Below the pieces are notes generated by a model that searched no databases, was not told the DNA's origin, and saw only the letters and a list, made by a program, of their open reading frames with translations. Below, piece by piece: positions 2,287-64,000 of a DNA stretch of 64,000 bases. Both the position numbers and the translations under genes were made by a program. Source of the stretch: an uncultured Gammaproteobacteria bacterium (lineage in GTDB: Bacteria; Patescibacteriota; Patescibacteriia; Magasanikbacterales; GWA2-37-8); assembly GCA_964596525.1 (NCBI GenBank), contig CAZQUL010000001.1, positions 1,276,312 to 1,340,311 of the forward strand, written 5' to 3'. Position 1 is the stretch's first letter. The number at the start of each line of letters is the position of its first letter.

Positions 2287-3762
2287 CTAGGGCTCGAGAT
2301 TGATTTCAACATACTGTTCTCCGGCGAGCGAGAATTTCTGGCGGTAGCGGTTGTCGCCATGTTCGTTCGGTGCTTCGCCAGGCCGGGCCGCTAGTACCCT
2401 TTTAGCAAAGGCCATATCAAGCGTCAACGCATCGACCTTCATACCCAGTTCTTTCTGCGCGAGAAGATAATACGAACCGCGTTTTATCTGACTAACAACC
2501 TCGGGTGCAAGGCGCACCACAAAACTTACCTCACCGGCGCTTCCCGGTGGAATGATGATGAGCCCACCGAACCATTGACGACCATACTCAACCCCTTGTT
2601 CAGGCGTGGTTGTAGCAACACCAACGCTGTTTTTGCGGATACCGACAGCCTTAACGAGCGTTGTGCCGAGCGGAAGGTAAAGACGCGTATACGATTGATA
2701 CTGGCTCGTTTTCCAGTCACGTCCACCCTGGTGGGCATAGCGCATGGTGATGGTAGCGGTGTACCCACTGCCCACGGGCGCAATGGCATAAGAGAGGTCG
2801 CGTTTAATGACTGCATCGGTTTTAAGCGCGCCCAAGTTGGCATCGACCCACATAAGGTAATCGCCCTGGAACGATGAGCGGAATTCGCCCGCCCACTGCT
2901 TGGCACGGACAATCGCCTGCTCCTGCGCATCAGTGAGGTAAAGAGCGATGGAGCGGTTTTCAAACATGCGCTCGGCGAGTTTGAGATACGCTGCCCAGTC
3001 GGTGATGAGAGTCGAGGTAAGCTTAGCAGACATGGCGCGTACAAGTTCGGCAAGGATCTGTTTGCGATCGCGACGGGAAAGTCCTTTGTCTTCAAACGCT
3101 TGTTCTACTTCGTATTGGAGTTTTTCAATAACGTTTTCTTTGGTGAATCGCTCACCCGACACTTCGATCGGACCGGTGATACCAAGCATTTCTTCGAGCA
3201 CCGTAGCCGTAATGCCGATAACGCCGTCGATGTTAGCGGCCGCAACACCACGTTGTTTGGTGTAGAGTTCGAGCGCTTTTTCAGAGGAGCTGGCAAAGTC
3301 CGGCGACCAATTGGCATCGCGGAAATACCAGCGGTTTACGCCTAAGTAGGTTTTAAGCGGGGCGGGCGGAACAGACGGAAAATCTTCGGGATAACCGGAA
3401 TAATCGAGGATTTCGGTGCCTTCGACTTTCAAAATATGTGGCACACCATTCTTGAGTTCAACCGTAGCGTAGGAACCGATGAAGCCGCCACCAGGCCGGA
3501 GCTCGGTATTATTGAGAAACAAAAAGAGGTATGTACGTGGCTCGTAAAATCCGAGGAGGTGTTTGACGAATTCCTGCCGATCGGCCGTAGATGTTGCCAC
3601 CGCATCCAGGATATTCGTGCGATCACCAATGGTTTTTACGAGCTGGTCGGCAACAAGGCGCTGCAAGACACCCGAGCGATACGCCCAGTAGGTGCCACCA
3701 ACCACTGTAACACCAAGCGCAAGCAACGTTATTCCGCCGTAGAGAAGGATTTTTTTAAACAT
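2287..3762 (-). CDS. N-terminally membrane-anchored DUF4012-like protein
   Basis: 491 aa with a single N-terminal TM helix (ILLYGGITLLALGVTVVGG) then a large extracytoplasmic domain; architecture typical of DUF4012 proteins common in CPR genomes. Assignment from memory of the family, not a search. Confidence 0.5.
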   Translation of the reverse strand: MFKKILLYGGITLLALGVTVVGGTYWAYRSGVLQRLVADQLVKTIGDRTNILDAVATSTADRQEFVKHLLGFYEPRTYLFLFLNNTELRPGGGFIGSYATVELKNGVPHILKVEGTEILDYSGYPEDFPSVPPAPLKTYLGVNRWYFRDANWSPDFASSSEKALELYTKQRGVAAANIDGVIGITATVLEEMLGITGPIEVSGERFTKENVIEKLQYEVEQAFEDKGLSRRDRKQILAELVRAMSAKLTSTLITDWAAYLKLAERMFENRSIALYLTDAQEQAIVRAKQWAGEFRSSFQGDYLMWVDANLGALKTDAVIKRDLSYAIAPVGSGYTATITMRYAHQGGRDWKTSQYQSYTRLYLPLGTTLVKAVGIRKNSVGVATTTPEQGVEYGRQWFGGLIIIPPGSAGEVSFVVRLAPEVVSQIKRGSYYLLAQKELGMKVDALTLDMAFAKRVLAARPGEAPNEHGDNRYRQKFSLAGEQYVEINLEP

Positions 3763-34893: not shown

Positions 34894-36927
34894 TTAGCGT
34901 TCGCTCGTGAGCATGATTTCACGCTTGCCGTCGAAGTTGACGTCCGCGGTTGCAATGCGCACATCAGAGGCAGAGCCGAAGATGCCGCGCGTTTCGTACT
35001 CGTCGCGCTTTTTGAGGGACGAATTGAAGATCCGGATGAGTGGACGGCCGGTTTCGGGCAAGGTAATGATCTCGTCGCGCCCATCCCCATCCACATCACC
35101 CGCCGCCACCTGCACGCCATCGGCGTATTTTTTGTCGTACGGGGTGAGGCGCGCTACAGCCTTGTAAAGAAACCGGTCGTAGATATAGATTTCATTAGCG
35201 CGGCCTTTGCCGGTGCCAACTAAGAGTTCTCCGTGTTTATCACCCACGACATTACCAAACGCCAGGGTAAAACCACCCTGGTATTTTGACCCGAGCGGGG
35301 TATCGGTTTTAATCTTTTGCCCAAGATGGTTGTAGACAACAAGCCCGCTGCCGACTTCTTGGGCTACCGCGATAGCGAGTGGGTCCGTGGCTACGAGCCG
35401 CCCGACTGCCAGCCGGATACCGTAACGGTAATACGCGCCAAAAGGAAAATCTTTAAAAACAACGTTACCCTGCGCATCGAGCACCTTAAGCTCCGGTCCT
35501 TCGACAATGACTTTTTCTTCGGTACCATCACCAGTCAGGTCACCAATGAAAAGGCGGGCACCAGAAGCGACCGCGCGGTCTTCGACAAATATGCCATTGC
35601 GAGCACGGAACCCTTTAGCGTCGAAGAAACGGGCAAATGATCCGTTGGTAAAAACAGAATTACGCACCACTTCGAATGTCTTGAGCACAACGAGCCCGTC
35701 CTGCGCTCCGATAGTGACTGCATCAACAATACGGCCGCTATTGACCGTGCGATCTTGCGTGCCGAAAAGCGTTTCAAAGTCGCCTTGGAGATCGACTTTT
35801 TTCTGTTCGTTAGATGGATTAACGAGCGCTACGCCATTTTGAAAATCACGCCGCCATACCGCGGTTTCTGCGTAGTCGAGCGGCGTTTTAACAACCGATT
35901 GGGCATTGCCGCGCGGTGCGCCGAGCGAGAAATTGTATTCGTCATACCACCACAGCTGCGTATGATCGTTAGTACCGTAATCGAACGAAAAATATCCGTC
36001 GTGCATCAGCGCGCTTGCCAGACCGAAACGCATTTCGCGGTAATCGTTCTGACGCCCGGTATTTTTGGTATTGCTATTGAAAATAAGCAGTCGTTTGCCA
36101 GGTGTAGACACGTAGTCGCGGGCGAGACCCATAGTGTAGCGCCAGCCGAATTCCGGAAAATTCTCAAAGAGCGCAGCCTGCAAGTCAGTACGGTAAACGG
36201 AACTGCCTGCACCCGTGTTGCCCGCAACAAGAAAACCAGACGGCACGACGCGCCGCGTCTCGGCAAAAAGCGAGCGGTAACCTTCGCGCCAGGCTTCATC
36301 GCCGTTTAAATCTGCCCGGCCATCGCGATTGTAGTCGGCCTGTCCTTTAGTGAACCATTCAACGTCTTGCCAAACGTTATCGTAAAAAACACCGTCCCAC
36401 ACGCCGGCAGTCGCGATTTCGCGTCCTACGAACTGGGCTAAATACGTGCTCCACCGGGTACCGCCGACGACCGGCGACGCAGCAGACATATTGAGCATGC
36501 TCGTACCCGGCCAAAAGGTGAGGCGGTTCTGGTTTGCGTCCGTGAGATACCATTCGGCAGCAATACCCTGCACGAGCTTGCGACGCATCGCGCTTGGGCT
36601 GGTAGCCGCATCATTAGCAATTTCTTGCGAGGTCACGTAAGCGAGCAAAATAATGGACGGATTAAGCTCACGCAATTTTTTAAGCTTTTCGGAATTGCGC
36701 GCCTGGTTTTCCATGTCGAGAATAACGATATCCCATTTGGCAAGTTCGGGCAGCTGATCATCGCGCAAATCCCACGCCAAAAAATAATTAGCAAGCCGCG
36801 GCGCGGTATGGCCTGGACGGAGCGGAGCCGCACGGGTAGCCAGCGGCGAAAAAAGTAAAAAAAGACTTGCGCAGGACGTAGCAAGAAGGAGAACGGTGTA
36901 AATTCGCTGGAAAAATCCTCGCATCAT
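34894..36927 (-). CDS. secreted protein: N-terminal glycoside-hydrolase-like domain plus C-terminal FG-GAP/VCBS-type repeats
   Basis: 677 aa; signal peptide LLLATSCASLFLLFSPLATRAA; C-terminal repeats GDLTGDGTEEKV, GDVDGDGRDEII, DVNFDGKREIM. Confidence 0.45.
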   Translation of the reverse strand: MMRGFFQRIYTVLLLATSCASLFLLFSPLATRAAPLRPGHTAPRLANYFLAWDLRDDQLPELAKWDIVILDMENQARNSEKLKKLRELNPSIILLAYVTSQEIANDAATSPSAMRRKLVQGIAAEWYLTDANQNRLTFWPGTSMLNMSAASPVVGGTRWSTYLAQFVGREIATAGVWDGVFYDNVWQDVEWFTKGQADYNRDGRADLNGDEAWREGYRSLFAETRRVVPSGFLVAGNTGAGSSVYRTDLQAALFENFPEFGWRYTMGLARDYVSTPGKRLLIFNSNTKNTGRQNDYREMRFGLASALMHDGYFSFDYGTNDHTQLWWYDEYNFSLGAPRGNAQSVVKTPLDYAETAVWRRDFQNGVALVNPSNEQKKVDLQGDFETLFGTQDRTVNSGRIVDAVTIGAQDGLVVLKTFEVVRNSVFTNGSFARFFDAKGFRARNGIFVEDRAVASGARLFIGDLTGDGTEEKVIVEGPELKVLDAQGNVVFKDFPFGAYYRYGIRLAVGRLVATDPLAIAVAQEVGSGLVVYNHLGQKIKTDTPLGSKYQGGFTLAFGNVVGDKHGELLVGTGKGRANEIYIYDRFLYKAVARLTPYDKKYADGVQVAAGDVDGDGRDEIITLPETGRPLIRIFNSSLKKRDEYETRGIFGSASDVRIATADVNFDGKREIMLTSER

Positions 36928-36960
36928 AACGGCCTAATCTACCCAAAAATACTCTTTTTG

Positions 36961-38025
36961 TCAATCATTCACCCCCGCCACGCGCTCATATACGCTTTCA
37001 TGCAAGCGCGCAACCGCGGTAATAGAGCAACGCTGGCTGCGCACACGAGCTGCTTCGCCTTGCCCACACAGTGCATCCCAATGTTTGTGGTACCAAATTA
37101 TTTTTTCTGCCAGCTGCGAGGTATTTTCTACCTCAAACAATGCGCCGGTAATGCCATCTTCGACGAGCTCGGTGAGCCCTCCGGTGCGGGCAGCGATAAC
37201 CGCGCGTCCGGCTGCCATAGCTTCCATAACCACGATACCCAAACCTTCCCAACGCGAAGGAGCAATGAGGAGATGGTGTGAGGTGAAAAGTTCGGGGATG
37301 GCTAAGCTGGTGCGCACGAAGTTAATGCGGTCTTTGAGGCCGAGTTCTTGGGCAAGCGCAGCAAGAGGTTCGTACAACTCACCTTCACCCACGCAGGTAA
37401 GCTGCCAATTGCCCGGCACATGCGCCAAAGCTTTGAGTGCAATGTCATAACCTTTCTGCTCAGTGAGGCGGCCGATCATAAGAAGTTTAAAGAGCTCAGG
37501 CGCAGCTGCGGGAACCGGAGGAACACTCGCGAAACGTTCGGTGGAAATGCCGCACCGGACAGTGGTAATGGGGGCGGTGATACGGTAAAAATCCTTCATC
37601 CAAACATGGATTGCCTCAGAGGTGGCGAGGTACGCAACGCTCAGATGGCACAGTTTTCGTTTGAACCACCCTTTAAGAGCAGATTCAGGGCGCACGTTAT
37701 GCTCGGTGGAAACGGTCGGAATACCGGCAAAGTACGCAGCGATGCGACCCCATGCATCTGCGCCAAAAAGATGGGTGTGTACAATGTCGGGCTTGAGTTT
37801 TTTAAGGAGATGGTAGAGCGGAATGATTTTGAGGGGACCGAAACCGCGGACGTCGTAGACGGCGGCATGCCGGCCGAGTTCGGGTGCGAGCGGACGGTCG
37901 GGATGAAAAAGAATGACACTCGAGCGAACGAGAGCCGGGTCGAGATGGTTAACAACATCAACGACATTGCGCTCCGCGCCGCCAAAACGCAGCGACGGAA
38001 TGATCTGCACGACATGAATGGGCAT
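36961..38025 (-). CDS. family 4 (GT-B) glycosyltransferase
   Basis: 354 aa; MPIHVVQIIPSLRFGGAERNVVDV... N-terminus and C-terminal EGLGIVVMEAMAAGRAVIAARTGG (E-x7-E region). Confidence 0.8.
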   Translation of the reverse strand: MPIHVVQIIPSLRFGGAERNVVDVVNHLDPALVRSSVILFHPDRPLAPELGRHAAVYDVRGFGPLKIIPLYHLLKKLKPDIVHTHLFGADAWGRIAAYFAGIPTVSTEHNVRPESALKGWFKRKLCHLSVAYLATSEAIHVWMKDFYRITAPITTVRCGISTERFASVPPVPAAAPELFKLLMIGRLTEQKGYDIALKALAHVPGNWQLTCVGEGELYEPLAALAQELGLKDRINFVRTSLAIPELFTSHHLLIAPSRWEGLGIVVMEAMAAGRAVIAARTGGLTELVEDGITGALFEVENTSQLAEKIIWYHKHWDALCGQGEAARVRSQRCSITAVARLHESVYERVAGVND

Positions 38026-38026
38026 A

Positions 38027-39472
38027 CTACGGGGAATCAGACGAAGAGCTTAGTCGATCCAGATACCGCGCCGCGAGGGCAACGCCGATCGGCATCCACA
38101 TGACACTCGTAAAATACGATGTATTGAACAATTGAAATGTAACCGCACCAACGACCATAACAAACATCGCCAAAGCGCGGGAATGAGGGGCGTCTCCATC
38201 ATTCGTGCGGCGCGGATAGATGGTTATGAACAAAGCGATAAGTGCTAAGAAGAAAACCACTATACCGACAATCCCCTGTTCCAAAAGGACTTTTTGGATA
38301 AAACCATGCGATTCAAGAGCCTCCCCGAATTCAACTACGTATTCATGGGTATTTTCGAAAATGGGAATATACATCCCTGGCCCATGCCCGATAAGCGGCG
38401 AGCGCCAAAAATAAAAAGCGGCGATTTCGGTCGTGAGTATGCGGGCGAAATTGGAGCTCGAGACGATGGAGGAGCGCAAGAAAAAAATCATGTATAGCAA
38501 AAGCGCACTCCCCACCGCGACGAGCGGACCAATAAGGTATGTGCCGATTTTTTCCCACACTATTTTTACCGCCGAACGTAAAAGGAAGGCCGCAACAACG
38601 GCCTGCACCGCCAAACTTATCCAGCCGGCGCGCGATAGCGTAAGCAGTTCTGCTACTACCATAAGCACGGTACCAAGCGCCAAGAACGGCGCGGTTTCGC
38701 GGTTCTCTCGGTACGCTTCCCATGCTTTCCAGATACCGACGGGAATGAGCGCGACCAGCACTTCGGCGATAAGGTTGTGGTTATACCCAAGCGGGGCGAG
38801 CGAATTGATGCCATAGGGCGTAACGCGCCACCAGCCAGTCTGCGGCACGACGACAAGGGACGAAAGACCAAATAGAGCGATTCCGACACCAACCCCCCAC
38901 CAGATCGACAGCACCCGCTCTAGAACCGTCTTGGAATTAATGAGTAGTGGCGGCAAGAGACCGTAGAGCACAAACGTGAATGCGATCGGCCGCACTAGAT
39001 ACTTAAACGATAAACCGCTATTTCCCTCGTAAGCACCCAAAGCTGAAACCGCGCTCACAAGAATAAACAATGCGTACAGCCCGATAAACCACCGCGGAGC
39101 GTGCAGGCTCTTCCACTGCAACGGTAAGGCACCCACTAACACCGAAAGAACGACGCCAGCACCAACCATCATGGCTATAAAATCGATGAGCGGCGCGTTG
39201 ACAGACGAGAGATACGCAACATTGCGGGCAAAATCGTAGGCATTAAGGTAGATGAACCAATTGCTGAAAAAACAAAACAGGGCCATGAGATACACGCCCC
39301 AACGGATATTGAAAAGAAATACCCCTAAAAGAAGGCTACCAAGCAAAAAAATACCGCTATCAATGAACCATTCGCCGGGCAAGAAAAACGCCACAACGAG
39401 AGAGAGCGTGAGGAGAAGTCCGCCGTAGTAAACACGCTGCTGAGGAGTGATGGTGAGGACACGCCACGCCAT
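38027..39472 (-). CDS. O-antigen ligase/polymerase-like (Wzy_C family) membrane protein
   Basis: 481 aa, about 10-12 TM helices; LTLSRAGWISLAVQAVVAAFLL loop characteristic of O-antigen ligase-like proteins. Confidence 0.65.
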   Translation of the reverse strand: MAWRVLTITPQQRVYYGGLLLTLSLVVAFFLPGEWFIDSGIFLLGSLLLGVFLFNIRWGVYLMALFCFFSNWFIYLNAYDFARNVAYLSSVNAPLIDFIAMMVGAGVVLSVLVGALPLQWKSLHAPRWFIGLYALFILVSAVSALGAYEGNSGLSFKYLVRPIAFTFVLYGLLPPLLINSKTVLERVLSIWWGVGVGIALFGLSSLVVVPQTGWWRVTPYGINSLAPLGYNHNLIAEVLVALIPVGIWKAWEAYRENRETAPFLALGTVLMVVAELLTLSRAGWISLAVQAVVAAFLLRSAVKIVWEKIGTYLIGPLVAVGSALLLYMIFFLRSSIVSSSNFARILTTEIAAFYFWRSPLIGHGPGMYIPIFENTHEYVVEFGEALESHGFIQKVLLEQGIVGIVVFFLALIALFITIYPRRTNDGDAPHSRALAMFVMVVGAVTFQLFNTSYFTSVMWMPIGVALAARYLDRLSSSSDSP

Positions 39473-39629: not shown

Positions 39630-40226
39630 CTACTGGCAGCCGCCGAGGATGCCCTGGATGAACAGGTTCACGATCGTGCTGCCGCCGGTGTACGTGATCT
39701 CGGGCAGCGCGCCGAGCTGCTCGCCGTTGACCTCGACGGTCACGAGCTCGTTGTCGTGCGGGCTGCGGCCCGGGATGCCCGCGGTGAGACCGGACTTGAG
39801 GTCCACCTTGAGCTGGATGCCCTGGGGCACCAGGCCGGCCTCGATCTTCTTGCCGCCGACGGTGTCGGTGGTGGTGATGGCCGCGAGGCACGCCACGCTG
39901 GGCAGGGCGAAGATGGCCGGGGCCGCCTTGCTCGCCGCCTTCTTCTGGACGCCGGAGTCGCCGAGCGCGCTGACCGCCGTCGAGTAGTACATGACGGTGA
40001 TGTCGACGGGCACGGCGCTGAGACGCGGGGTGACCTTGAGGTTGATCGCTCCCGGCGCGGCGACGGTCAGGTTGCGGGCGATGTTGTCGGGCGCGGGCTG
40101 CTGGGCATCCGGGTTGGGGTTGTTCGGCAGCGGCTGGGGGGCCGCTTCGGTGCCGCACGCGCCCACGAGGGCGAGGACGGCGGCGCCGAGGCCGAAGTTG
40201 AGGAACGAACGGAGGGAACGGTTCAT
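39630..40226 (-). CDS. third G+C-rich lipoprotein gene (hypothetical)
   Basis: Start at MNRSLRSFLNFGLGAAVLALVGACGTEA (lipobox LVGAC) with AGGAGAA RBS; coding region very G+C-rich vs flanks; the overlapping 250-aa and 254-aa ORFs in other frames are Arg/Gly/Pro-rich artefacts. Confidence 0.6.
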   Translation of the reverse strand: MNRSLRSFLNFGLGAAVLALVGACGTEAAPQPLPNNPNPDAQQPAPDNIARNLTVAAPGAINLKVTPRLSAVPVDITVMYYSTAVSALGDSGVQKKAASKAAPAIFALPSVACLAAITTTDTVGGKKIEAGLVPQGIQLKVDLKSGLTAGIPGRSPHDNELVTVEVNGEQLGALPEITYTGGSTIVNLFIQGILGGCQ

Positions 40227-40585
40227 GGGTCTTCTCCTGTGCACCTCGCTGTCGGGTGCGTTGACAGAAAATACGGTAGCAGAAGAAGGTCTTTTTGTCA
40301 AGTATTCTATGGATATCTTTGAGGTCGATTTTTTGAAGTTTTCTACAGTCAAACTTCATCTTTTATTTATCTTCCACAGCAGACCCTTTACAACGTTTTT
40401 TTATGGTGTAGGTTGTTTCCTAAGGGGGACGCGCTGCTGCATGTTCGGCAGTTTTTTTGTTGCCCTCAATTGGCTCGTTGACAACTCAACCCAAGGAGCT
40501 TGTTATGTCTACTACCTTGCCTCGTGCTACACTGCCTCCAGAATCTAGTCACCCTGCCACAACTCGTGGCGCTAAGGAGAATCCT

Positions 40586-41254
40586 ATGAAAACTTCTTCT
40601 GCTCATCTGCGTACGTTTCTCATCACTCTTGGTCTTGGCACCCTTGCCCTCATGGGCATGCGGTGTAATGGGTTTACCCCGGGCGGCGAAGCGTATCCGA
40701 AAGCTACGACGAGTATTCCGAGGTATACGTACAAGACGGTGATAGGTAAAGTTACTTGGCCGTCTCCGAATTCGATTGACCAGCAAGCGCTTGCCGCCAT
40801 TCCATCGGCGGAGCGAGAGAAACTCAAGCTCTCCGGCGTGCCGGTGTTGGTGCCGAGGGATCCGAAGTTCCTCAAGACAGGAATTATGATAAATCCTACG
40901 GAAACAGGCTACGCTTTTGGACCTGCTGACTGGGTAGAAGGGATAGATACGACAATAAACGGGGGTCGTATTGGCGATACGTCCGACGCCCCAATCTCAA
41001 CTAACGCGTATGAACAAAGTTCTAACAGCGTCAAAGTTGGTGAGTTTAATGTCGTGTTTTATCAGAACGAAGCTGGTACATGGTACGGAACCTGGGGTGC
41101 TTACGGCGATATGGGCTATCTCATGAGTTTTAGATGTCGAGATCGCCAGGATTCCCGTTGCGCTAACGAGAGCCAGCTTAAAGAGCTTATAAGAAATCTC
41201 GTCTTCGTTGGTGGCAACTTTATCCCTTACGAAACCACCATCCTCGACCAGTAA
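40586..41254 (+). CDS. hypothetical secreted protein
   Basis: AAGGAG 6 nt before the ATG at 40586; MKTSSAHLRTFLITLGLGTLALMGMRCNG signal peptide. An alternative start at 40505 also has an RBS. Confidence 0.5.
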   Translation: MKTSSAHLRTFLITLGLGTLALMGMRCNGFTPGGEAYPKATTSIPRYTYKTVIGKVTWPSPNSIDQQALAAIPSAEREKLKLSGVPVLVPRDPKFLKTGIMINPTETGYAFGPADWVEGIDTTINGGRIGDTSDAPISTNAYEQSSNSVKVGEFNVVFYQNEAGTWYGTWGAYGDMGYLMSFRCRDRQDSRCANESQLKELIRNLVFVGGNFIPYETTILDQ

Positions 41255-41275
41255 CCACAAGAAAGAGAGTGTGTC

Positions 41276-43162
41276 ATGAAAAAGATCGCTGTGGCTCTGT
41301 CGGTAGGAACTGCCACTATCTTTGGCGCCTTCTTTGCCCTCAACAGGGTAGAAGCCCAAAGTGAAACCCAAAAACCTGTCTTTAGCTACTACCCACCTGG
41401 TAGCATTGAGCCTAAGAGTGGTGCTGGTGCTAAACCTGAGTTTCAGCTTAGCACCGGCTATGTCGATTATACCGTTCATGCTCCCGGTATTGGTTTCCCG
41501 CTTAAGCTACCTGCCTTCCCTAACTCTCAAGTATATCGTCCTGGGGGAGAATTCTATGCCTTAAAAGGCGACGGAAAATGGCAGTGCGACAAAAGCAACT
41601 ACAGCTATCCGTGGCGGGACAACTATTGCGAGAAACGATCGTGGGATGTTGATGACTGCCAGGGCGGTCATGGGCACCAGGGACAAGACATCCGGCCTTC
41701 GACATGTGTCACTGATACGCACGAAGTGGTGGCGGTAGAGGATGGTGTCATATCTGAAATTCCTGCGCTGGGAGAGCTTTATGTCAAAAGTATCGACAAT
41801 AAGCGTCTCTACGACTACTTCCATATGGAGTTCGTCCGTCACAAGGTAAAAGATAATGGCGGACTGCTTTTGGACGCTAAGGAAAACCCCATAGAAATAC
41901 CTGGGACGAGGGTAAGTTTCAAGAAGAATGATCCTATAAAAAGAGGCCAGATACTTGGTTATGTTTCCACTTTTTCGGGTGGGAGTAGAGATGTCACTTC
42001 TCGTCATCTGCACCTCGCTCTTAGAAAGCACAGGTACGACAGCAGCGGAAAGATTCTGTACGGTGGCGCTTTCTTCTACCACTCCCCCTACATGTCCCTC
42101 GTCCGCGCCTATGAAGCAGCTCTGGGAACTGAAGGTGTAATGCTTTCCGCCCCGGTCATCTGCAAGGCCGGCACCGCTCGTTGCACCGATACGTCGATAG
42201 TTTCCTGCAACAGCGACGGAACATCGGAGAACTTGACTCCCTGCAAAACCACAGCGTGCAAGAACGACGTGATCTGCAAAACCGGTGTCGCCGATCCGCC
42301 GCCTGCCAAACCTCCTGATCTTTCTCTCCCGCCACCCAAAGACATGCCCACCCCACCACCCCCACCCGACCTCACCCCGAGTTGCCGACCTGAAGCCTGC
42401 ATCTGCGGGTGCGGTGGTGCCACGTGCCGTGCACAATCCTGTACGCCCTACTCCACCTACTGTGCCGATTCATCGCGCCTTTTCCAGTGCGCCAACGACG
42501 GATGCTCCTTTACGTTCACGCCCTGTCCGTATGGTTGCAGTGGCAATGTCTGCAAAGACAGCTCCGGCATGGTGCCAGACATGTCCATGCCTGTCCGTGA
42601 CATGGCTGGAGTGGATTTAGGTCGTCCGACCGAGATTTGCAATGGAATCGACGACGACAGCAACGGCATTATCGACGACAGGACGGAGTGCTGGACGTGG
42701 ATCACCCGCTTCAAAGATCCCATCACCGGGGCACGCTGTTACGGCGTTGGTTCCACCCCTCCGTTTGCCTGCGCAGCGTATGACCGCGAGTTCACCTTGT
42801 TTGCGGTTCCCTCTGTCGCCTGGAGCGACGGTAGCAATGCTCTCTGGGTACAGTGCAGCCGCGGCATCGACCACGTCATTACCAAAAAAGACGGTGGTGA
42901 GCGAGTGGCACTCGAAGGGCTCGGGTGGAACTGTTTCCTGGAGTTGGGATATTTCTTCAACTCGGGGATGGGTCCTCGAACGCCTAAGCGCACACCGTAT
43001 GCGAACACGTGTCCGCTGTACCGGCAGCGTTTTTCTACCTCTGGCTCACAGTCGCATCTTTTCACGCCCTTCTCAGAATCTGTCACCAGTGCGGTCTGCG
43101 AACCGCCGGCCCGGGCTGATGTGGTGGCTGTGAGCTCGTGTGGGTTGCCGGTGGGGTGTTAG
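41276..43162 (+). CDS. secreted M23/LytM-family metallopeptidase fused to Cys-rich domains with a MopE-like CxxGxDDDxNGxxDD motif
   Basis: 628 aa; signal peptide; M23 blocks GHQGQDIRP...HEVVAVEDGVI...GQILGYVS...HLHLAL; Pro-rich linker; 30+ Cys; TEICNGIDDDSNGIIDDRTEC. Confidence 0.65.
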   Translation: MKKIAVALSVGTATIFGAFFALNRVEAQSETQKPVFSYYPPGSIEPKSGAGAKPEFQLSTGYVDYTVHAPGIGFPLKLPAFPNSQVYRPGGEFYALKGDGKWQCDKSNYSYPWRDNYCEKRSWDVDDCQGGHGHQGQDIRPSTCVTDTHEVVAVEDGVISEIPALGELYVKSIDNKRLYDYFHMEFVRHKVKDNGGLLLDAKENPIEIPGTRVSFKKNDPIKRGQILGYVSTFSGGSRDVTSRHLHLALRKHRYDSSGKILYGGAFFYHSPYMSLVRAYEAALGTEGVMLSAPVICKAGTARCTDTSIVSCNSDGTSENLTPCKTTACKNDVICKTGVADPPPAKPPDLSLPPPKDMPTPPPPPDLTPSCRPEACICGCGGATCRAQSCTPYSTYCADSSRLFQCANDGCSFTFTPCPYGCSGNVCKDSSGMVPDMSMPVRDMAGVDLGRPTEICNGIDDDSNGIIDDRTECWTWITRFKDPITGARCYGVGSTPPFACAAYDREFTLFAVPSVAWSDGSNALWVQCSRGIDHVITKKDGGERVALEGLGWNCFLELGYFFNSGMGPRTPKRTPYANTCPLYRQRFSTSGSQSHLFTPFSESVTSAVCEPPARADVVAVSSCGLPVGC

Positions 43163-43277
43163 GTTAGAGCTTTCCTTGATCTTGACCATCCTGTTGTGGG
43201 GTGGTTTTGTGTTATCCGATTTCCTAGCTTTTTTTGCAGTTGCACATTTGATTTTCTTCTTGTAGGATACGTCCGTT

Positions 43278-59700: not shown

Positions 59701-62700
59701 TTAGAGCCCGAGTGGAATGCGTTCTGCAGGCGGTGGAGTGGTTTCGACCGGAGGCGGATCTTGGGTGGGAGGAGTTGAAGGTGGCGCAGATTCTTGCGGC
59801 GGGGTTGGTTCACTCTCGGAAGATGAGGGTGTGGCAGGCTCAGTTTCTGACCCTGCAGGAGAAGGCTCTTCTCCTACCGCCGGAGCCGGCTCCGAAGAAG
59901 GGGTGGAAGAAACAGTCGTTTCCGGCGTTGAAGACGGCGTGTCAGCGCCACTAATGGTCGTAGTTGGCACCTCTACCGAAGGAGTCGTAGAAGGCGCAGT
60001 GGTTTCGTCGATGGTCGGCGTAGAGGTAGCGGCTTCTTCGGTCGTGGTCGTCGGGACAGTAGACGTTGAAACAGGAACAGTGGAAGTGGGCACCGTTAAC
60101 GGAGCAGAATCTGCCGGTTCGGACTCAGGGGTTGCGTCCGGTACGACTACGTCGATGCGAGGAGTTACGACTGGCGCGTCGCTCACCGTCATGCGCGCTC
60201 GTTCCGAGGGTAAGAAGGCATGCCAGTTAAAGATAACGTCACGCGTTGTGGTAGGAGAAGTAAGGGCCAGAACAAAACTGCTTGTTGCCACACTCTTAAG
60301 CTTCCACGGATCTTCAAAGTCGACCGGGGTGGCAACAACAATTGGCGATCGGACATACGGATTTTCGAAGGTTACGCGCACTTCTTGAGATCCAGCCAAG
60401 ATTTTTGCCTCACCCACGCTGTCGACGCCAAATTCGGCATGACCATATACGGTGAGCTTACCACCCACGCGAGCGTTACCTTCCACCACCAAAGAATTAA
60501 GGGTAAGAAGAGAAATCTCGGCGTTCTGAATCATGGAAAGGACGGTTGAAGTGTTGATGTTGACCGATGTGTCACGCGGGGTTGCCTCAAGGAGTTCAAC
60601 GCGCGATCGAACAGCAGTAAGATCGTTCGCTAAACGATCGGTCGAGCTTACGAGCTTAGCGTTGAGCTCTTTTACGCCCTGGAGTAAATAGATGGGGATA
60701 AGATGGTAGTGAATACCCATATATCCACGACCCACATCGGGAGAAACGAGCTCCGGAAGATACTGCTCTGTATCCTGGGCGATCAAACCATACTGTCGGC
60801 TGTTACCCAGGTGGAGATCGGGAAATTCATCCGAGCGGAAGAAATAGGTGCTCGGCGTAAGCTGAACGAGTTTCTCAAGAACATTATTCAAAGGTTCTAG
60901 GTCTTTTTTGAGGCGGATATCGGAAGAACAGCTACCAATAAGACCAGTGCCATCATACCGGCGCAAACAACCATTGGTTCCGGCCGTACCGACGCGGATG
61001 TCACCTGCTACTTGGAGGACATCGTTAATGGTTGTTGTACCTACGCCAAGCAAAGGGCCGATAAAGGAGGGTGCCAGAGAGACAACGGCCAGAGGACCTG
61101 TAGAATTGATGCCGCCATTTCCAACATCAAGGCTTTGCTGGGCCTCTAATCTCCCGCGCACCGCCACATCACTTGAAGCTTGAAGGCCACCGACCTGCGC
61201 GCTTTGGGCGATAAGGCTTGTTACTTCGGTCCCTGTTACATCGATAACCAACATTTTACCCGGGCTTCCTTCAATCGACACATACGCATAGCGACCGTAA
61301 ACCTTGAGATCATATGCCAGATCATCAATATCAATAGAGTGGGCAAGTACGGGGCTCAGGGGAGAAGAAATATCAATGACAAGCAATTTTCCTGTACCGC
61401 GTTGGACAGCGTAGAGGTACCGCCCTGCTACAACGAGCTCACGAACATTAGCCCCGACAGTTGTCGAAGCGAGCACTACCTGACCATTTATCGGATCCTG
61501 CATGTCAGCAATATACAAGCTGTCCGTAGCATGGCCAACATAAAGGTAGCGCCCGCTAACAGCGACACTCGACGGGCCACTACCGACACTAAGATGAGTG
61601 ATGTAGATCGTGTTGGGGTTATTTGGGCTATACAGAGAGTAAATACCCACGGTATTTTCACCCTGATGCGCGATATACATATAATTACCATCGAAGGTAA
61701 GGGCTACAGGACCAACACCGGTAGAGGGACCAGAATATACAACTTTAGTATATTCCGGATCACCTATATCAAGAACTGAAACATAAGTTCCAACATAGTT
61801 AAGCACATAGGCATAACGCCCTCGAATATCAATTGAGACGGGGGAAGCGCCAACCGAAGAAACCGTTTTGACGAGAAAAGGAAGACTCGGATCACGAACA
61901 TTTAGGACAGTTACATCATCTGAGCCTCGATTGACCACAAAAGCATACTCACCAGCCACGGCAACGTCGCTCGGTTGCGTTCCCACCGTTGTTGAAGAAA
62001 TCTGGATAGGATTGCGCGGATTACTAATATTGATGGCAGATAAGGTATTAGAAGCTGCATTTGTGACAAAAAGATTTGCACCGGATTTGGCAAACCCGCG
62101 TGATCCATACCCAAGCGTCGTGCTTGCCACTACCTGCACACCAGAGTTTGGTCCGATCAAATTTTGGATATTTCCTTCTACGGTCAAGCGCGCCGCTGCT
62201 GTTGTGGTACCAATACTAAGAGCGCCACTCGTATTATTCCAAACAAGCGACGAAGTCTGCATGACACTGCCCGTCGGACTACCGAAAACCACCTGCCCAT
62301 CATTAAAATTGCTCAAATCACCTGGGCCGATAGTAGAAGTACTGACCAAACCGTTCGTGCCGCGCAAGAAACCGGTTAAGCCACTCAAGGTCAAGCTCGA
62401 AATAGTCGTCGTTGCCAGTGTAGAGGTTCCGGCAGCTGTCAGGTTGCCACCTACGTACTGACTGCCGGTCGTGGTTGCGTTGGTAGCTACTAAGTTGGTA
62501 GCAAAGAAATTAGTGCTCGTCGCATTGCCCAAAACCGCATTGGTGAGGGTGCCGAGCGTGGCCGCGAAATTAGTAGTGGTAAGATTGCCGCCCGTGGCGT
62601 TAGTGAAGCTGAGCAGGCTGGCAAAAAAATTGGTTGATGTGACATTGGTTGATGTGACATTAGCCAAGGTGTTGAAGGTGGCAGTAAACGTCGTCACGAA

Positions 62701-64000
62701 CGAGTTAGTTGATGTGGCGTTCGTCGAAGTAACGTTCGTTAAGGCGCTGTTAGTACCTGTAAGATTTGTAATAGACGCCGTATTAAGTGAGGCGTTTGTT
62801 CCGGTAGCGTTTACCCAAGTAAGATTCTGAAAATTAGAAGTTCCATCAATCTGAAGGTTATCGAAACTGCCGGTGGCGGCATGGATAATCGTAGCAGTAG
62901 CACTGCCCGTAACCGTAAGGTCGCCACCAATAGTGGCATTTCTCGTTACATCAAGCTGCGCCACAGTCGTCGTAGCCAGGGACGAAGTGCCAGTAAATGT
63001 CGCTGCCCCAGAGAGCGCCAGGTTGGTGCCGGTCGCGTTAGTAAATGTTAAGCTGGCAAGATTCAACGAACCGTTAAAGATGAGATTATCGAAGGTGCCG
63101 GTTGTGGCGTGCAGGTAGGTCGAAGTAGCATTAGTCGCGACTATATTTGTCGCAAAGAAATTAGTGGAGGTAGCATTACCCAAAACCGCATTAGTAAGCG
63201 TACCGAGCGTGGCAGCAAAATTAGTCGTCGTGGCGTTGGTCGAGGTGACATTCGTGAAAAGAGCGTTAACACCCGTCAAATTAGTTGTCGATGCTGAGAC
63301 TATAGAAGCAGTGGTACCGGTGGCGTTGGTAAAAGTAAGATCAGTGAGGTTTAAAGGACCATTCAACGACAAACTGTCAAACGTCGCTGTTGTGGCACGG
63401 AAAATCGTCGCGGTGGCATTCCCGGTGATCTGTACATCATTGGAAAATACAAAACGATTGTTGGTGGCATCCCACTGCAAATAATTGCTACCAGAATTAT
63501 TGAAATAGAAGAAGTTGTCGCCCGCCGTAGTGAAGCGTCCGAACGAGCCAAGGAGGAGTGCGCCTTGCATCGTGGTCGTGTTGACAGTAGTCAGACTTGA
63601 TACGGTAGTCGTCGCCAAACTCGACGTAGCAGTAGCAACGATCGGCCCACTGAAGGTGCTAGATCCGGTAGCGTACCAAGAACCAGTCGTGGTGGCATTG
63701 TTGAGAAGCGTATTTCCTGAAACGGTCAACTCGACGATGGTTGTAGTGGTAAGATTGGTAGCTCCCGTAGCTTTTAACTGATTTAAAGCCGTAACACCAG
63801 TGGAAGTGCCGTTGACCCACGTAATATCGCCAAAAGAACTACCGCTCGTGGCACCCGAAATCTGCTGGCCGTTCCAGTACAGGCTTCCACCCTGGTTATA
63901 CAAACTGAAGCTTGTCGTAGCCGGCGTAGTGGAAGCTAGAGAAATGCCACCGACTACCGAGAGAGCGTTATCAGGCGCGCTGGTGCCAATACCTAGGCGC
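59701..64000 (-). CDS. giant secreted/surface protein (5' end beyond window): Thr/Asn-rich beta-helical repeats, LVIVD-type beta-propeller repeats, S74-type intramolecular-chaperone (tailspike-like) domain, PT-rich tail
   Basis: More than 1430 aa within the window; the frame stays open to the right edge and the track's M at 63903 is TTG. Repeats such as ...TNATSTNFFATN...; LVIVD-like blocks GEYAFVVNRGSDDVTVLNV / GRYAYVLNYVGTYVSVLDI / GRYLYAVQRGTGKLLVIDI; S74-like SSDIRLKKDLEPL...YGLIAQDTEQYLPELV; C-terminal PT/ST-rich low-complexity tract. Confidence 0.7.
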   Translation of the reverse strand, partial: RLGIGTSAPDNALSVVGGISLASTTPATTSFSLYNQGGSLYWNGQQISGATSGSSFGDITWVNGTSTGVTALNQLKATGATNLTTTTIVELTVSGNTLLNNATTTGSWYATGSSTFSGPIVATATSSLATTTVSSLTTVNTTTMQGALLLGSFGRFTTAGDNFFYFNNSGSNYLQWDATNNRFVFSNDVQITGNATATIFRATTATFDSLSLNGPLNLTDLTFTNATGTTASIVSASTTNLTGVNALFTNVTSTNATTTNFAATLGTLTNAVLGNATSTNFFATNIVATNATSTYLHATTGTFDNLIFNGSLNLASLTFTNATGTNLALSGAATFTGTSSLATTTVAQLDVTRNATIGGDLTVTGSATATIIHAATGSFDNLQIDGTSNFQNLTWVNATGTNASLNTASITNLTGTNSALTNVTSTNATSTNSFVTTFTATFNTLANVTSTNVTSTNFFASLLSFTNATGGNLTTTNFAATLGTLTNAVLGNATSTNFFATNLVATNATTTGSQYVGGNLTAAGTSTLATTTISSLTLSGLTGFLRGTNGLVSTSTIGPGDLSNFNDGQVVFGSPTGSVMQTSSLVWNNTSGALSIGTTTAAARLTVEGNIQNLIGPNSGVQVVASTTLGYGSRGFAKSGANLFVTNAASNTLSAINISNPRNPIQISSTTVGTQPSDVAVAGEYAFVVNRGSDDVTVLNVRDPSLPFLVKTVSSVGASPVSIDIRGRYAYVLNYVGTYVSVLDIGDPEYTKVVYSGPSTGVGPVALTFDGNYMYIAHQGENTVGIYSLYSPNNPNTIYITHLSVGSGPSSVAVSGRYLYVGHATDSLYIADMQDPINGQVVLASTTVGANVRELVVAGRYLYAVQRGTGKLLVIDISSPLSPVLAHSIDIDDLAYDLKVYGRYAYVSIEGSPGKMLVIDVTGTEVTSLIAQSAQVGGLQASSDVAVRGRLEAQQSLDVGNGGINSTGPLAVVSLAPSFIGPLLGVGTTTINDVLQVAGDIRVGTAGTNGCLRRYDGTGLIGSCSSDIRLKKDLEPLNNVLEKLVQLTPSTYFFRSDEFPDLHLGNSRQYGLIAQDTEQYLPELVSPDVGRGYMGIHYHLIPIYLLQGVKELNAKLVSSTDRLANDLTAVRSRVELLEATPRDTSVNINTSTVLSMIQNAEISLLTLNSLVVEGNARVGGKLTVYGHAEFGVDSVGEAKILAGSQEVRVTFENPYVRSPIVVATPVDFEDPWKLKSVATSSFVLALTSPTTTRDVIFNWHAFLPSERARMTVSDAPVVTPRIDVVVPDATPESEPADSAPLTVPTSTVPVSTSTVPTTTTEEAATSTPTIDETTAPSTTPSVEVPTTTISGADTPSSTPETTVSSTPSSEPAPAVGEEPSPAGSETEPATPSSSESEPTPPQESAPPSTPPTQDPPPVETTPPPAERIPLGL

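Follow-up and report, generated by a model that had tools for sequence, protein, structure and literature searches.

A TdaR1-TdaR2-type module in a patescibacterial genome: a predicted exported M23 peptidase and its obligately linked partner protein

What might two adjacent genes for exported proteins, the second of them a predicted peptidase, do together in a member of the Patescibacteriota? The question is raised by a locus within a 64,000-nucleotide stretch of DNA (hereafter the window; positions 1,276,312 to 1,340,311 of the forward strand of contig CAZQUL010000001.1, assembly GCA_964596525.1), which was deposited as coming from an uncultured Gammaproteobacteria bacterium and is placed by GTDB in the Magasanikbacterales (GWA2-37-8). 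An original prediction, made from the sequence alone, described two co-directional secreted proteins and regarded them as a possible pair of cell-wall-active effectors. The layout was confirmed exactly: open reading frame (ORF) A (40586-41254) and the M23 gene (41276-43162) lie on the forward strand with 21 nt between them, according to both the ORF listing and direct reading, and an export signal can be read from the sequence of each product. Because they share a strand, are separated by so small a gap, and are preceded by a conserved leader and followed by a terminator, the two genes are taken to form a self-contained operon, which is the window lineage's version of a widespread module typified by TdaR1-TdaR2 of Phaeobacter.

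The 628 aa product of the M23 gene begins with a predicted signal peptide (residues 1-27, 41276-41356), recognisable from its MKK start and hydrophobic stretch, with cleavage predicted between VEA and QS; residues 1-20 have low values of the predicted local distance difference test (pLDDT) in the AlphaFold model. This is followed by a TdaR2-type M23 catalytic domain (residues ~30-290, 41363-42145), delimited from homologues, an alignment and the model. M23 family members are defined by the motifs H(x)nD and HxH and by an additional upstream catalytic histidine (PMC9662197), all of which are found in the window protein. H134 and D138 delimit the motif HQGQD (residues 134-138), H244 and H246 lie in HLHLAL (residues 244-249), and these four, together with H183, make up a set of active-site residues that is nearly invariant in a family alignment of 66 sequences, as are the cysteines C104, C118, C128 and C144. 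The model, computed like that of ORF A as a single chain and compared with known folds using Foldseek, has block-mean pLDDT mostly of 82-98 across residues 30-340, with two 10-residue blocks at 66 and 63. It has the M23/LAS beta-sheet fold, matching the LytM-like protein 3nyy, lysostaphin, LytM, Csd3 and LasA with probabilities of 0.99-1.00. Likewise, the best PDB sequence matches of the subfamily profile are pseudoalterin (E 3.9e-9), 3nyy and LasA (1.6e-8). The first 290 residues have at least 843 homologues at E <= 1e-3, most of them annotated with PF01551, and the gathering cut-off of that family (28.7 bits) is passed by TdaR2 (32.2 bits) and the homologues P0010 (43.5 bits) and P0005 (54.2 bits). 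An NCBIfam scan of the M23 protein gave no match, and no relative of the catalytic domain was found in phage records. Judged by these residues and the modelled fold, the N-terminal half is apparently a zinc M23 peptidase of the lysostaphin/LytM/LasA type with a complete active site and predicted activity; the M23/LytM core (HxxxD...HxH with HLHLAL) on which the effector proposal was founded is thus borne out.

Some features of this domain are nevertheless unusual. It has an extended conserved N-terminal segment not typical of M23 enzymes, and in the window lineage it carries three or four insertions relative to its relatives, one of which, 26 aa long and located after H183, increases the spacing between H183 and the HxH motif to 61 aa, compared with ~33 aa in relatives. 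The whole protein contains 32 cysteines, an even number in each segment, which together with the signal peptide fits an extracytoplasmic location.

The peptidase gene is consistently accompanied by ORF A. When a single genome from each GTDB species was scanned with the alignment of the catalytic domain, at least 571 species gave matches, of which the best 80 loci were fetched (L006-L085); a further eight metagenomic loci (L001-L005 and L086-L088) represent relatives of the window lineage. A hidden Markov model (HMM) built solely from window-lineage ORF A sequences placed a same-strand homologue directly upstream of the M23 gene at 63 of the 80 GTDB loci in its first pass and at all 80 after a single iteration. 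All eight lineage relatives carrying either gene have both, side by side and in an unchanged order, with different flanking genes each time. The pairing also holds on the plasmids of Phaeobacter, Tritonibacter and Rhizobium, where tblastn located the module on 58, three and two replicons, respectively. Hence the adjacency and order of the pair are kept in every locus examined, as the description of the two genes as a unit implied. A conserved third gene was sought through all-versus-all clustering of the 80 loci, and none emerged. Two further elements of the original prediction did not fare as well. The first protein is not borne out as a second effector, being instead an obligate, fast-evolving partner of the peptidase; and placement beside a lipoprotein gene and envelope genes, which had been considered informative, is not, the flanks being different in every relative. 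By contrast, the adjacent immunity-like gene that was to be looked for in relatives has a candidate in ORF A itself.

The taxonomic range of these loci is broad. The best 80 include Myxococcota (Sorangium, Nannocystis, Sandaracinus, Polyangiaceae and Labilithrix), Caulobacterales (Asticcacaulis, Brevundimonas, Phenylobacterium and Caulobacter) and other Alphaproteobacteria, along with single metagenome-assembled genomes (MAGs) labelled Vicinamibacterales, Desulfobacterales and Flavobacteriaceae. One MAG harbours at least two copies of the module (L017 and L032). The module is therefore widespread, and neither specific to a lineage nor bound to particular neighbours. Its occurrence not just in Myxococcota but also in Caulobacterales, Rhizobium and roseobacters with a free-living habit weakens the suggestion that it is directed at a host. 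Within the window lineage itself, full-length relatives of the enzyme are few, the closest being P0002 (56% identical) and the orthologue in L003 (62%). With regard to the outlying labels, the N-terminus of ORF A in the 'Flavobacteriaceae' locus L077 is almost identical to that in the alphaproteobacterial MAG of L061, and L081 is similarly close to L083 and L067; the sequences of L077 and L081 probably represent mis-binned contigs, and the presence of the module in Bacteroidota should not be assumed.

The relatives of the pair that have been named are those of Phaeobacter. In P. gallaeciensis, plasmid pGal_A255 carries tdaA-B-C-D-E followed by genes annotated as a hypothetical protein (191 aa), an M23 family metallopeptidase (228 aa) and a gamma-glutamylcyclotransferase, and P. 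inhibens DSM 17395 has the same trio on a plasmid of 262 kb (NC_018291.1). According to three later reviews (PMC7497051, PMC9075582, PMC5765558), this trio is tdaR1-tdaR2-tdaR3, the tropodithietic acid (TDA) self-resistance operon of Wilson et al. 2016. Over 187 aa, the window's M23 domain shares 43% identity with TdaR2 (E 2e-34), and TdaR2 scores E 7.5e-74 against the subfamily HMM. Pairwise BLAST found no match between ORF A and TdaR1, and their similarity is evident at the level of profiles: the ORF A group aligns with the TdaR1 group in hhalign at 96.1% (E 2.8e-9), and the iterated HMM gives E values of 5e-15 and 1.6e-18. Both systems have the same order, a small exported protein and then an M23 peptidase with a signal peptide, but whereas TdaR2 (228 aa) consists of the catalytic domain alone, that of the window protein is followed by ~340 aa of Cys-rich modules. 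In the review PMC9075582, tdaR1-3 are stated to be absent outside TDA producers; this restriction fails for the R1-R2 pair, homologues of which, lacking tdaR3, exist in at least 571 GTDB species. Viewed through these homologies, tdaR1-tdaR2 is a particular case of a general module, one that has come to lie next to the TDA cluster.

ORF A (40586-41254, forward strand) encodes a 222 aa protein of the TdaR1 family which, based on its profile homologues and model, is exported and probably membrane-tethered. Its positively charged N-terminus is followed by a hydrophobic helix ending in G-M-R-C27, a motif that is invariant, although non-canonical, in the window lineage as G-[ML]-R-C; homologues have classical lipoboxes in Myxococcota (for example, LAAC in Sorangium) and type-I signal peptides in Alphaproteobacteria. 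The protein belongs to no Pfam or NCBIfam family and has no sequence relative in the PDB. Over 84 distinct family members, C184 and C192 are conserved in 100% of sequences, and G174, Y178, P86 and a few other residues are also conserved. Mean pairwise identity within the family is 26%, as against 57% for the co-encoded catalytic domains, such that ORF A evolves much faster than the enzyme; the distances of the two proteins correlate (r = 0.75), as expected from a shared history. The core of the model (residues 55-212, block-mean pLDDT mostly 75-95) has as its top PDB fold matches five chains of Tsi3, the best having E 3.3e-4, a template modelling (TM) score of 0.46 and a root-mean-square deviation (rmsd) of 5.8 A, followed by PA3488, an uncharacterised Jonesia protein and PsbP-like proteins. 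Tsi3 shuts off a wall hydrolase by means of three loops that enter the enzyme's groove; its fold, with PsbP as a structural neighbour, is typical of protein-protein interaction domains (PMC3792639). The fast divergence, the small number of conserved residues and the Tsi3-like predicted fold together suggest that ORF A is a binding or inhibitor protein.

Homologues of ORF A are sparse when sought directly. There are nine close homologues; a profile scan of contigs with the ORF A alignment, using one peptide pattern, gave no match, even in the source genome, and a metagenome scan returned one 1.1-kb contig. A paralogue, P0129, lies elsewhere on the source contig, outside the window: its first 75 residues, including the annotated part encoded by the leader, are 83% identical to ORF A, and the remainder 41%. 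No second M23 paralogue from the source contig was among the 120 best matches listed. P0129 may be an orphan, or it may have arisen through partial gene conversion.

The reading favoured here, tentatively and at somewhat short of even chances, is one of self-protection, in which an exported peptidoglycan endopeptidase is restrained by ORF A. The M23 enzyme would be exported through the Sec pathway and cleave peptide cross-links in peptidoglycan; ORF A would be its dedicated, tethered binding partner, keeping it inactive near the producer's own wall and so serving as a self-protection or latency factor, in the manner of an immunity protein or an autolysin inhibitor; and the C-terminal cassette specific to the window lineage, comprising Cys-rich repeats, a MopE-like motif and a terminal domain (C-dom), would direct the released enzyme to a ligand in the wall or on the surface. 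The wall attacked may be the cell's own, in remodelling, or a foreign one, in antagonism or attack on a host, the data being compatible with either; an antibacterial or host-directed effector role is possible. Surface sorting of the enzyme in Myxococcota and its modular ends favour an outward-facing role, while the plain periplasmic enzyme of Caulobacterales and roseobacters points inward.

Comparable logic is known from exported inhibitors of a cell's own wall hydrolases, such as Bd3460 of Bdellovibrio, which acts on DD-endopeptidases, and IseA of Bacillus, which acts on DL-endopeptidases. In these systems, too, an exported protein neutralises a co-produced hydrolase, although their folds and enzyme families are unrelated to those in the window. 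The predicted fold of ORF A is closest to that of Tsi3, the exported, groove-occluding partner of Tse3 in Pseudomonas aeruginosa's type VI secretion system (T6SS). Yet there is no sequence homology between them, the window enzyme is a peptidase with a Sec signal instead of a T6SS-delivered muramidase, the gene order is reversed, and no T6SS genes lie nearby, none of the 20 flanking proteins scanned having a T6SS domain. The secreted M23 bacteriolysins (lysostaphin, LytM, LasA and pseudoalterin) share with the window protein their fold and catalytic residues, their export and the combination of a catalytic with a targeting domain. The window protein is very divergent from them, however, having an extended N-terminal segment, four cysteines and targeting modules that are not SH3b. 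Producers of lysostaphin and zoocin are protected by cytoplasmic, FemABX-like modification of the wall (Lif and Zif), as described in a review of the family (PMC9662197), with no exported binding protein of the kind proposed here.

Several observations count against restraint by ORF A. The window protein scores 20.6 bits against the Pfam M23 family, below its cut-off, and the 26-aa insertion between H183 and HxH may affect the predicted enzyme. The likeness to Tsi3 is modest, given the TM score and rmsd, and the fold is a generic one. The partner gene precedes that of the enzyme, whereas many immunity genes follow their toxins. In the non-predatory Caulobacterales and roseobacters, the enzyme consists of the catalytic domain only, which fits a housekeeping or stress function at least as well. 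Finally, in Phaeobacter, the sole experimental context, PMC7497051 and PMC9075582 report the pair as belonging to a TDA tolerance operon and not to a lysin-immunity system.

These points lead to the strongest competing explanation, which is given a lower but still substantial weight, at just under one chance in three: that the enzyme is a housekeeping or stress autolysin with which the cell remodels its own wall as it grows, undergoes envelope stress or tolerates membrane-active compounds, and that ORF A serves to anchor, activate or localise the enzyme and not to inhibit it. The module is mostly single-copy per locus in free-living, non-predatory Alphaproteobacteria, in which the enzyme lacks a targeting domain, and no genes of secretion systems or mobile elements are linked to it. 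In Phaeobacter the pair is co-regulated with TDA synthesis, and tdaR1-2-3 raised TDA tolerance when introduced into E. coli (PMC7497051, PMC9075582); such tolerance is reported solely for the full set of three genes, in Phaeobacter and E. coli. The source genome, moreover, makes its own peptidoglycan, as the window also encodes a MurC-like Mur ligase and MreB. Set against this explanation are the enzymes of Myxococcota with the MYXO-CTERM tag, which marks proteins for surface display outside the wall; the high variability of the C-terminal additions; the quick divergence of the partner; the patchy distribution, with at least two copies in the MAG already mentioned; and the presence of secreted bacteriolysins among the best sequence-profile matches. 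Should the partner prove a mere accessory of this kind, the finding would reduce to a divergent but ordinary M23 autolysin.

Conversely, restraint by ORF A could be taken further, though such an extension seems unlikely, at perhaps one chance in five: the module would be a Sec-dependent lysin-immunity system, the TdaR1 family a new class of exported M23 inhibitors, and the cassette a means of breaching a host's or competitor's wall. TdaR1-family inhibitors would then protect the producers in hundreds of species; the enzyme of a possibly episymbiotic bacterium with a ~1.3 Mb genome would be armed with a previously undescribed Cys-rich targeting cassette; and the orphan paralogue P0129 would provide immunity in reserve. 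Few wall hydrolases are better studied than the M23 peptidases, which are also candidate enzybiotics, and the window shows a member of this known family in a new configuration, with an obligate partner and a C-terminal domain that are both uncharacterised; the former might found a new family of regulators or immunity proteins, and the latter a new kind of targeting domain. The M23 review covers latency through pro-peptides and FemABX-like immunity factors, and includes no exported partner obligatorily linked to an M23 subfamily (PMC9662197); literature on M23 enzymes with MYXO-CTERM, immunity, myxobacterial predation or Patescibacteria likewise provided no description of this module.

By analogy with the membrane-anchored lipase foldase Lif, which is encoded next to lipA, ORF A might alternatively be an extracytoplasmic folding helper, or steric chaperone, for a disulfide-rich peptidase. 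The strict gene linkage, the membrane tethering of ORF A, and the four conserved cysteines and unusual extended N-terminal segment of the catalytic domain would all accord with such a function. It is nonetheless improbable, since the fold of ORF A resembles protein-binding beta-sandwiches and immunity proteins and is unlike that of known foldases, other M23 enzymes fold without helpers, and AlphaFold models the catalytic domain confidently by itself.

Small-molecule self-resistance of the TDA type, acting via the gamma-glutamyl cycle with the M23 protein hydrolysing Cys-Gly, is strongly disfavoured. It is suggested by the homology to tdaR1-tdaR2 and by what has been proposed for TdaR2, which reviews liken to Gly-Gly zinc endopeptidases and state 'could' cleave Cys-Gly, while regarding the role of TdaR1 as one that could not be predicted (PMC7497051, PMC9075582, PMC5765558). 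However, tblastn found no match to tdaB-E or tdaR3 in the window, and neither tdaR3 nor any tda gene stands next to the pair in the 80 GTDB loci; for this reason, the mechanism specific to TDA cannot be carried over to the window. Furthermore, the enzyme is an exported one with an endopeptidase groove, the window protein bears large extracellular modules, and tdaR3 alone helped against a protonophore, as reported in PMC7497051. The TdaR1 and TdaR2 proteins of Phaeobacter themselves both have signal peptides, a poor fit to the proposed cytoplasmic Cys-Gly role. Least credible of all, and refuted at the level of the sequence, is the alternative, raised with the original prediction, that the protein is a catalytically dead LytM factor of the EnvC/NlpD/DipM kind activating amidases at the division site: its predicted fold does match the LytM domain of EnvC, and the family profile matches DipM by sequence, but those factors lack catalytic residues and carry coiled-coil or LysM domains, whereas the window protein has all the zinc ligands and catalytic histidines, which are nearly invariant in its family, LysM and coiled-coil domains are absent (Pfam at E <= 1 returned just M23 and the MopE motif), and no FtsEX or amidase gene accompanies the pair as a specific neighbour, the flanks not being conserved.

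Under the favoured reading, in which ORF A restrains the enzyme, targeting would fall to the C-terminal half of the window protein, a Cys-rich cassette that is rare. This half begins with a Cys-rich repeat containing six cysteines (residues 293-336, 42152-42283), modelled as three beta-strands with block-mean pLDDT of 79-91, which P0002, P0003 and the L003 orthologue share and which is similar to a second copy further along. A Pro-rich linker, read from the sequence and with pLDDT below 50 (residues 337-368, 42284-42379), leads to a second Cys-rich region of 12 cysteines with low to moderate pLDDT (residues 369-426, 42380-42553), which includes that second copy; hence the window protein has two copies of the six-cysteine repeat, each ~40 aa in length. 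The terminal cassette identified by profile search and Pfam (42629-43159) consists of a single MopE-like motif, TEICNGIDDDSNGIIDDRTEC (residues 452-472), and C-dom, a domain of ~155 aa with 10 cysteines that forms the end of the protein. The fusion to a Pro-rich linker and unusual Cys-rich domains was accordingly described correctly from the outset, but the MopE-like assignment is sub-threshold: PF11617, the family of this putative metal-binding motif, scores 14.0 to 15.3 bits at residues 452-468, against a cut-off of 27, corresponding to one degenerate copy. The same family scores 36.2 bits at the homologous position of P0134, and 12 of 41 C-dom sequences (40 C-dom proteins and the window's own C-terminal fragment) pass at E <= 1e-3.

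C-dom itself is not confined to this enzyme. A word-indexed search with the C-terminal end found four relatives alone, and an exhaustive profile search with C-dom found 1746 proteins at E <= 1e-3, of which 64 reached E <= 1e-30; in nearly all full-length matches the domain is at the extreme C-terminus. Its partners in the 41 scanned sequences are M23 domains from other subfamilies (9), CHAP (3), Peptidase_C39_2 (3), Extensin-like_C (1) and NAGPA (1), while others of these proteins have adhesin-like repeats. C-dom matches no Pfam family and, by profile search, no PDB sequence. Motifs of the form 'PLYRF...HLFT' had prompted comparison with DUF5648-like repeats, and no such Pfam match occurs in the window protein or the 40 relatives.

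Across the M23 subfamily, C-termini vary similarly, including MYXO-CTERM extensions in Myxococcota, SLH, Golvesin_C and Kelch, and there are none in Alphaproteobacteria. The MYXO-CTERM tag (a C-terminal GCGC-hydrophobic-RRRR arrangement, TIGR03901, cut-off 20 bits) was detected in the Myxococcota homologues P0010 (28.5 bits) and P0053 (20.4 bits), and not in the window protein, which ends in ...SSCGLPVGC. A constant catalytic domain joined to swappable anchoring or targeting ends fits an enzyme acting outside the cytoplasmic membrane on a surface substrate.

Within the M23 gene, GC content at third codon positions (GC3) is 0.67 in the half coding for the cassette and 0.50 in the catalytic half, a gap which may be due to amino-acid composition or to the fused cassette having come from elsewhere. 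Cys-rich repeats, MopE motif and C-dom all recur in P0135, attached to an N-terminal domain of no known type. The gene before that of P0135, which overlaps it (the two span L090:5303-7836), encodes a 236-aa lipoprotein (LLGGMGC) outside the ORF A family, giving a similar two-gene layout made from different parts.

Upstream of ORF A, a non-coding region of ~200 nt (40387-40585, forward strand) is conserved with 71% mean DNA identity over seven related loci whose upstream genes are unlike one another, and is a putative leader and promoter. This conservation matches that of the coding regions in the same loci (the window, L001, L003, L005 and L086-L088). The leader alignment contains a promoter-like TTTACA-16 nt-TAGGTT (40387-40414), of general form TTTACA-16-TAnnnT; a hairpin with a T-run (40433-40459), found in a terminator scan and displaying a little covariation; an invariant TTGACAAC (40478-40485); TGcTACACT (40525-40533), which resembles an extended -10 element (TGnTAnnnT) with its variable positions coinciding with the n's; and a Shine-Dalgarno sequence AAGGAG (40574-40579), 6 nt before the ATG of ORF A. 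The region has no match in Rfam, and its sequence is such that it could be an attenuator or a leader element.

The overlap of this leader with a possible 5' extension makes the start of ORF A ambiguous. The ATG at 40586 gives the 222 aa protein, while the publicly annotated start is an in-frame ATG at 40505, for a protein of 249 aa (P0122); the additional 27 codons are open in all seven loci, with an in-frame 3-nt indel in L005. At the other end of the operon, the stop codon of the M23 gene is followed by a terminator-like hairpin (43184-43216, forward strand), detected in the terminator scan, with a 10-pair stem (43184-43206) and the T-rich tail TTGTGTTATC; from its sequence, this likely marks the end of the two-gene transcription unit.

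The lipoprotein gene beside the module (39630-40226, reverse strand) encodes a 198-aa product with the canonical lipobox LVGAC. Its composition (GC 0.70, GC3 0.965, versus 0.50-0.67 in neighbouring genes) makes it look like a recent acquisition from a high-GC donor; it belongs to no Pfam family and has no homologue in the loci fetched from relatives. The laterally acquired lipoprotein of the original prediction is thus upheld as regards foreign composition, and not as regards any role in the unit. An envelope-related block beyond it (34894-39472, reverse strand) contains a 677 aa protein with GHL15 and FG-GAP, a GT4 glycosyltransferase and a 481-aa multi-pass membrane protein without a Pfam match, and is not kept beside the module in relatives. 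Both this block and the high-GC lipoprotein were considered as parts of the module and rejected, being missing from all the relatives' loci. Elsewhere in the window, many ORFs have no family and a DUF4012 protein (2287-3762, reverse strand) is encoded beside MreB, which, with a parent contig of 1,343,778 bp, would accord with a bacterium of small genome, possibly CPR-like. A 1400-aa protein (59701-63903, reverse strand) combines LVIVD repeats with the intramolecular-chaperone domain Peptidase_S74 (endosialidase chaperone), an architecture typical of fibre or tailspike-like surface proteins.

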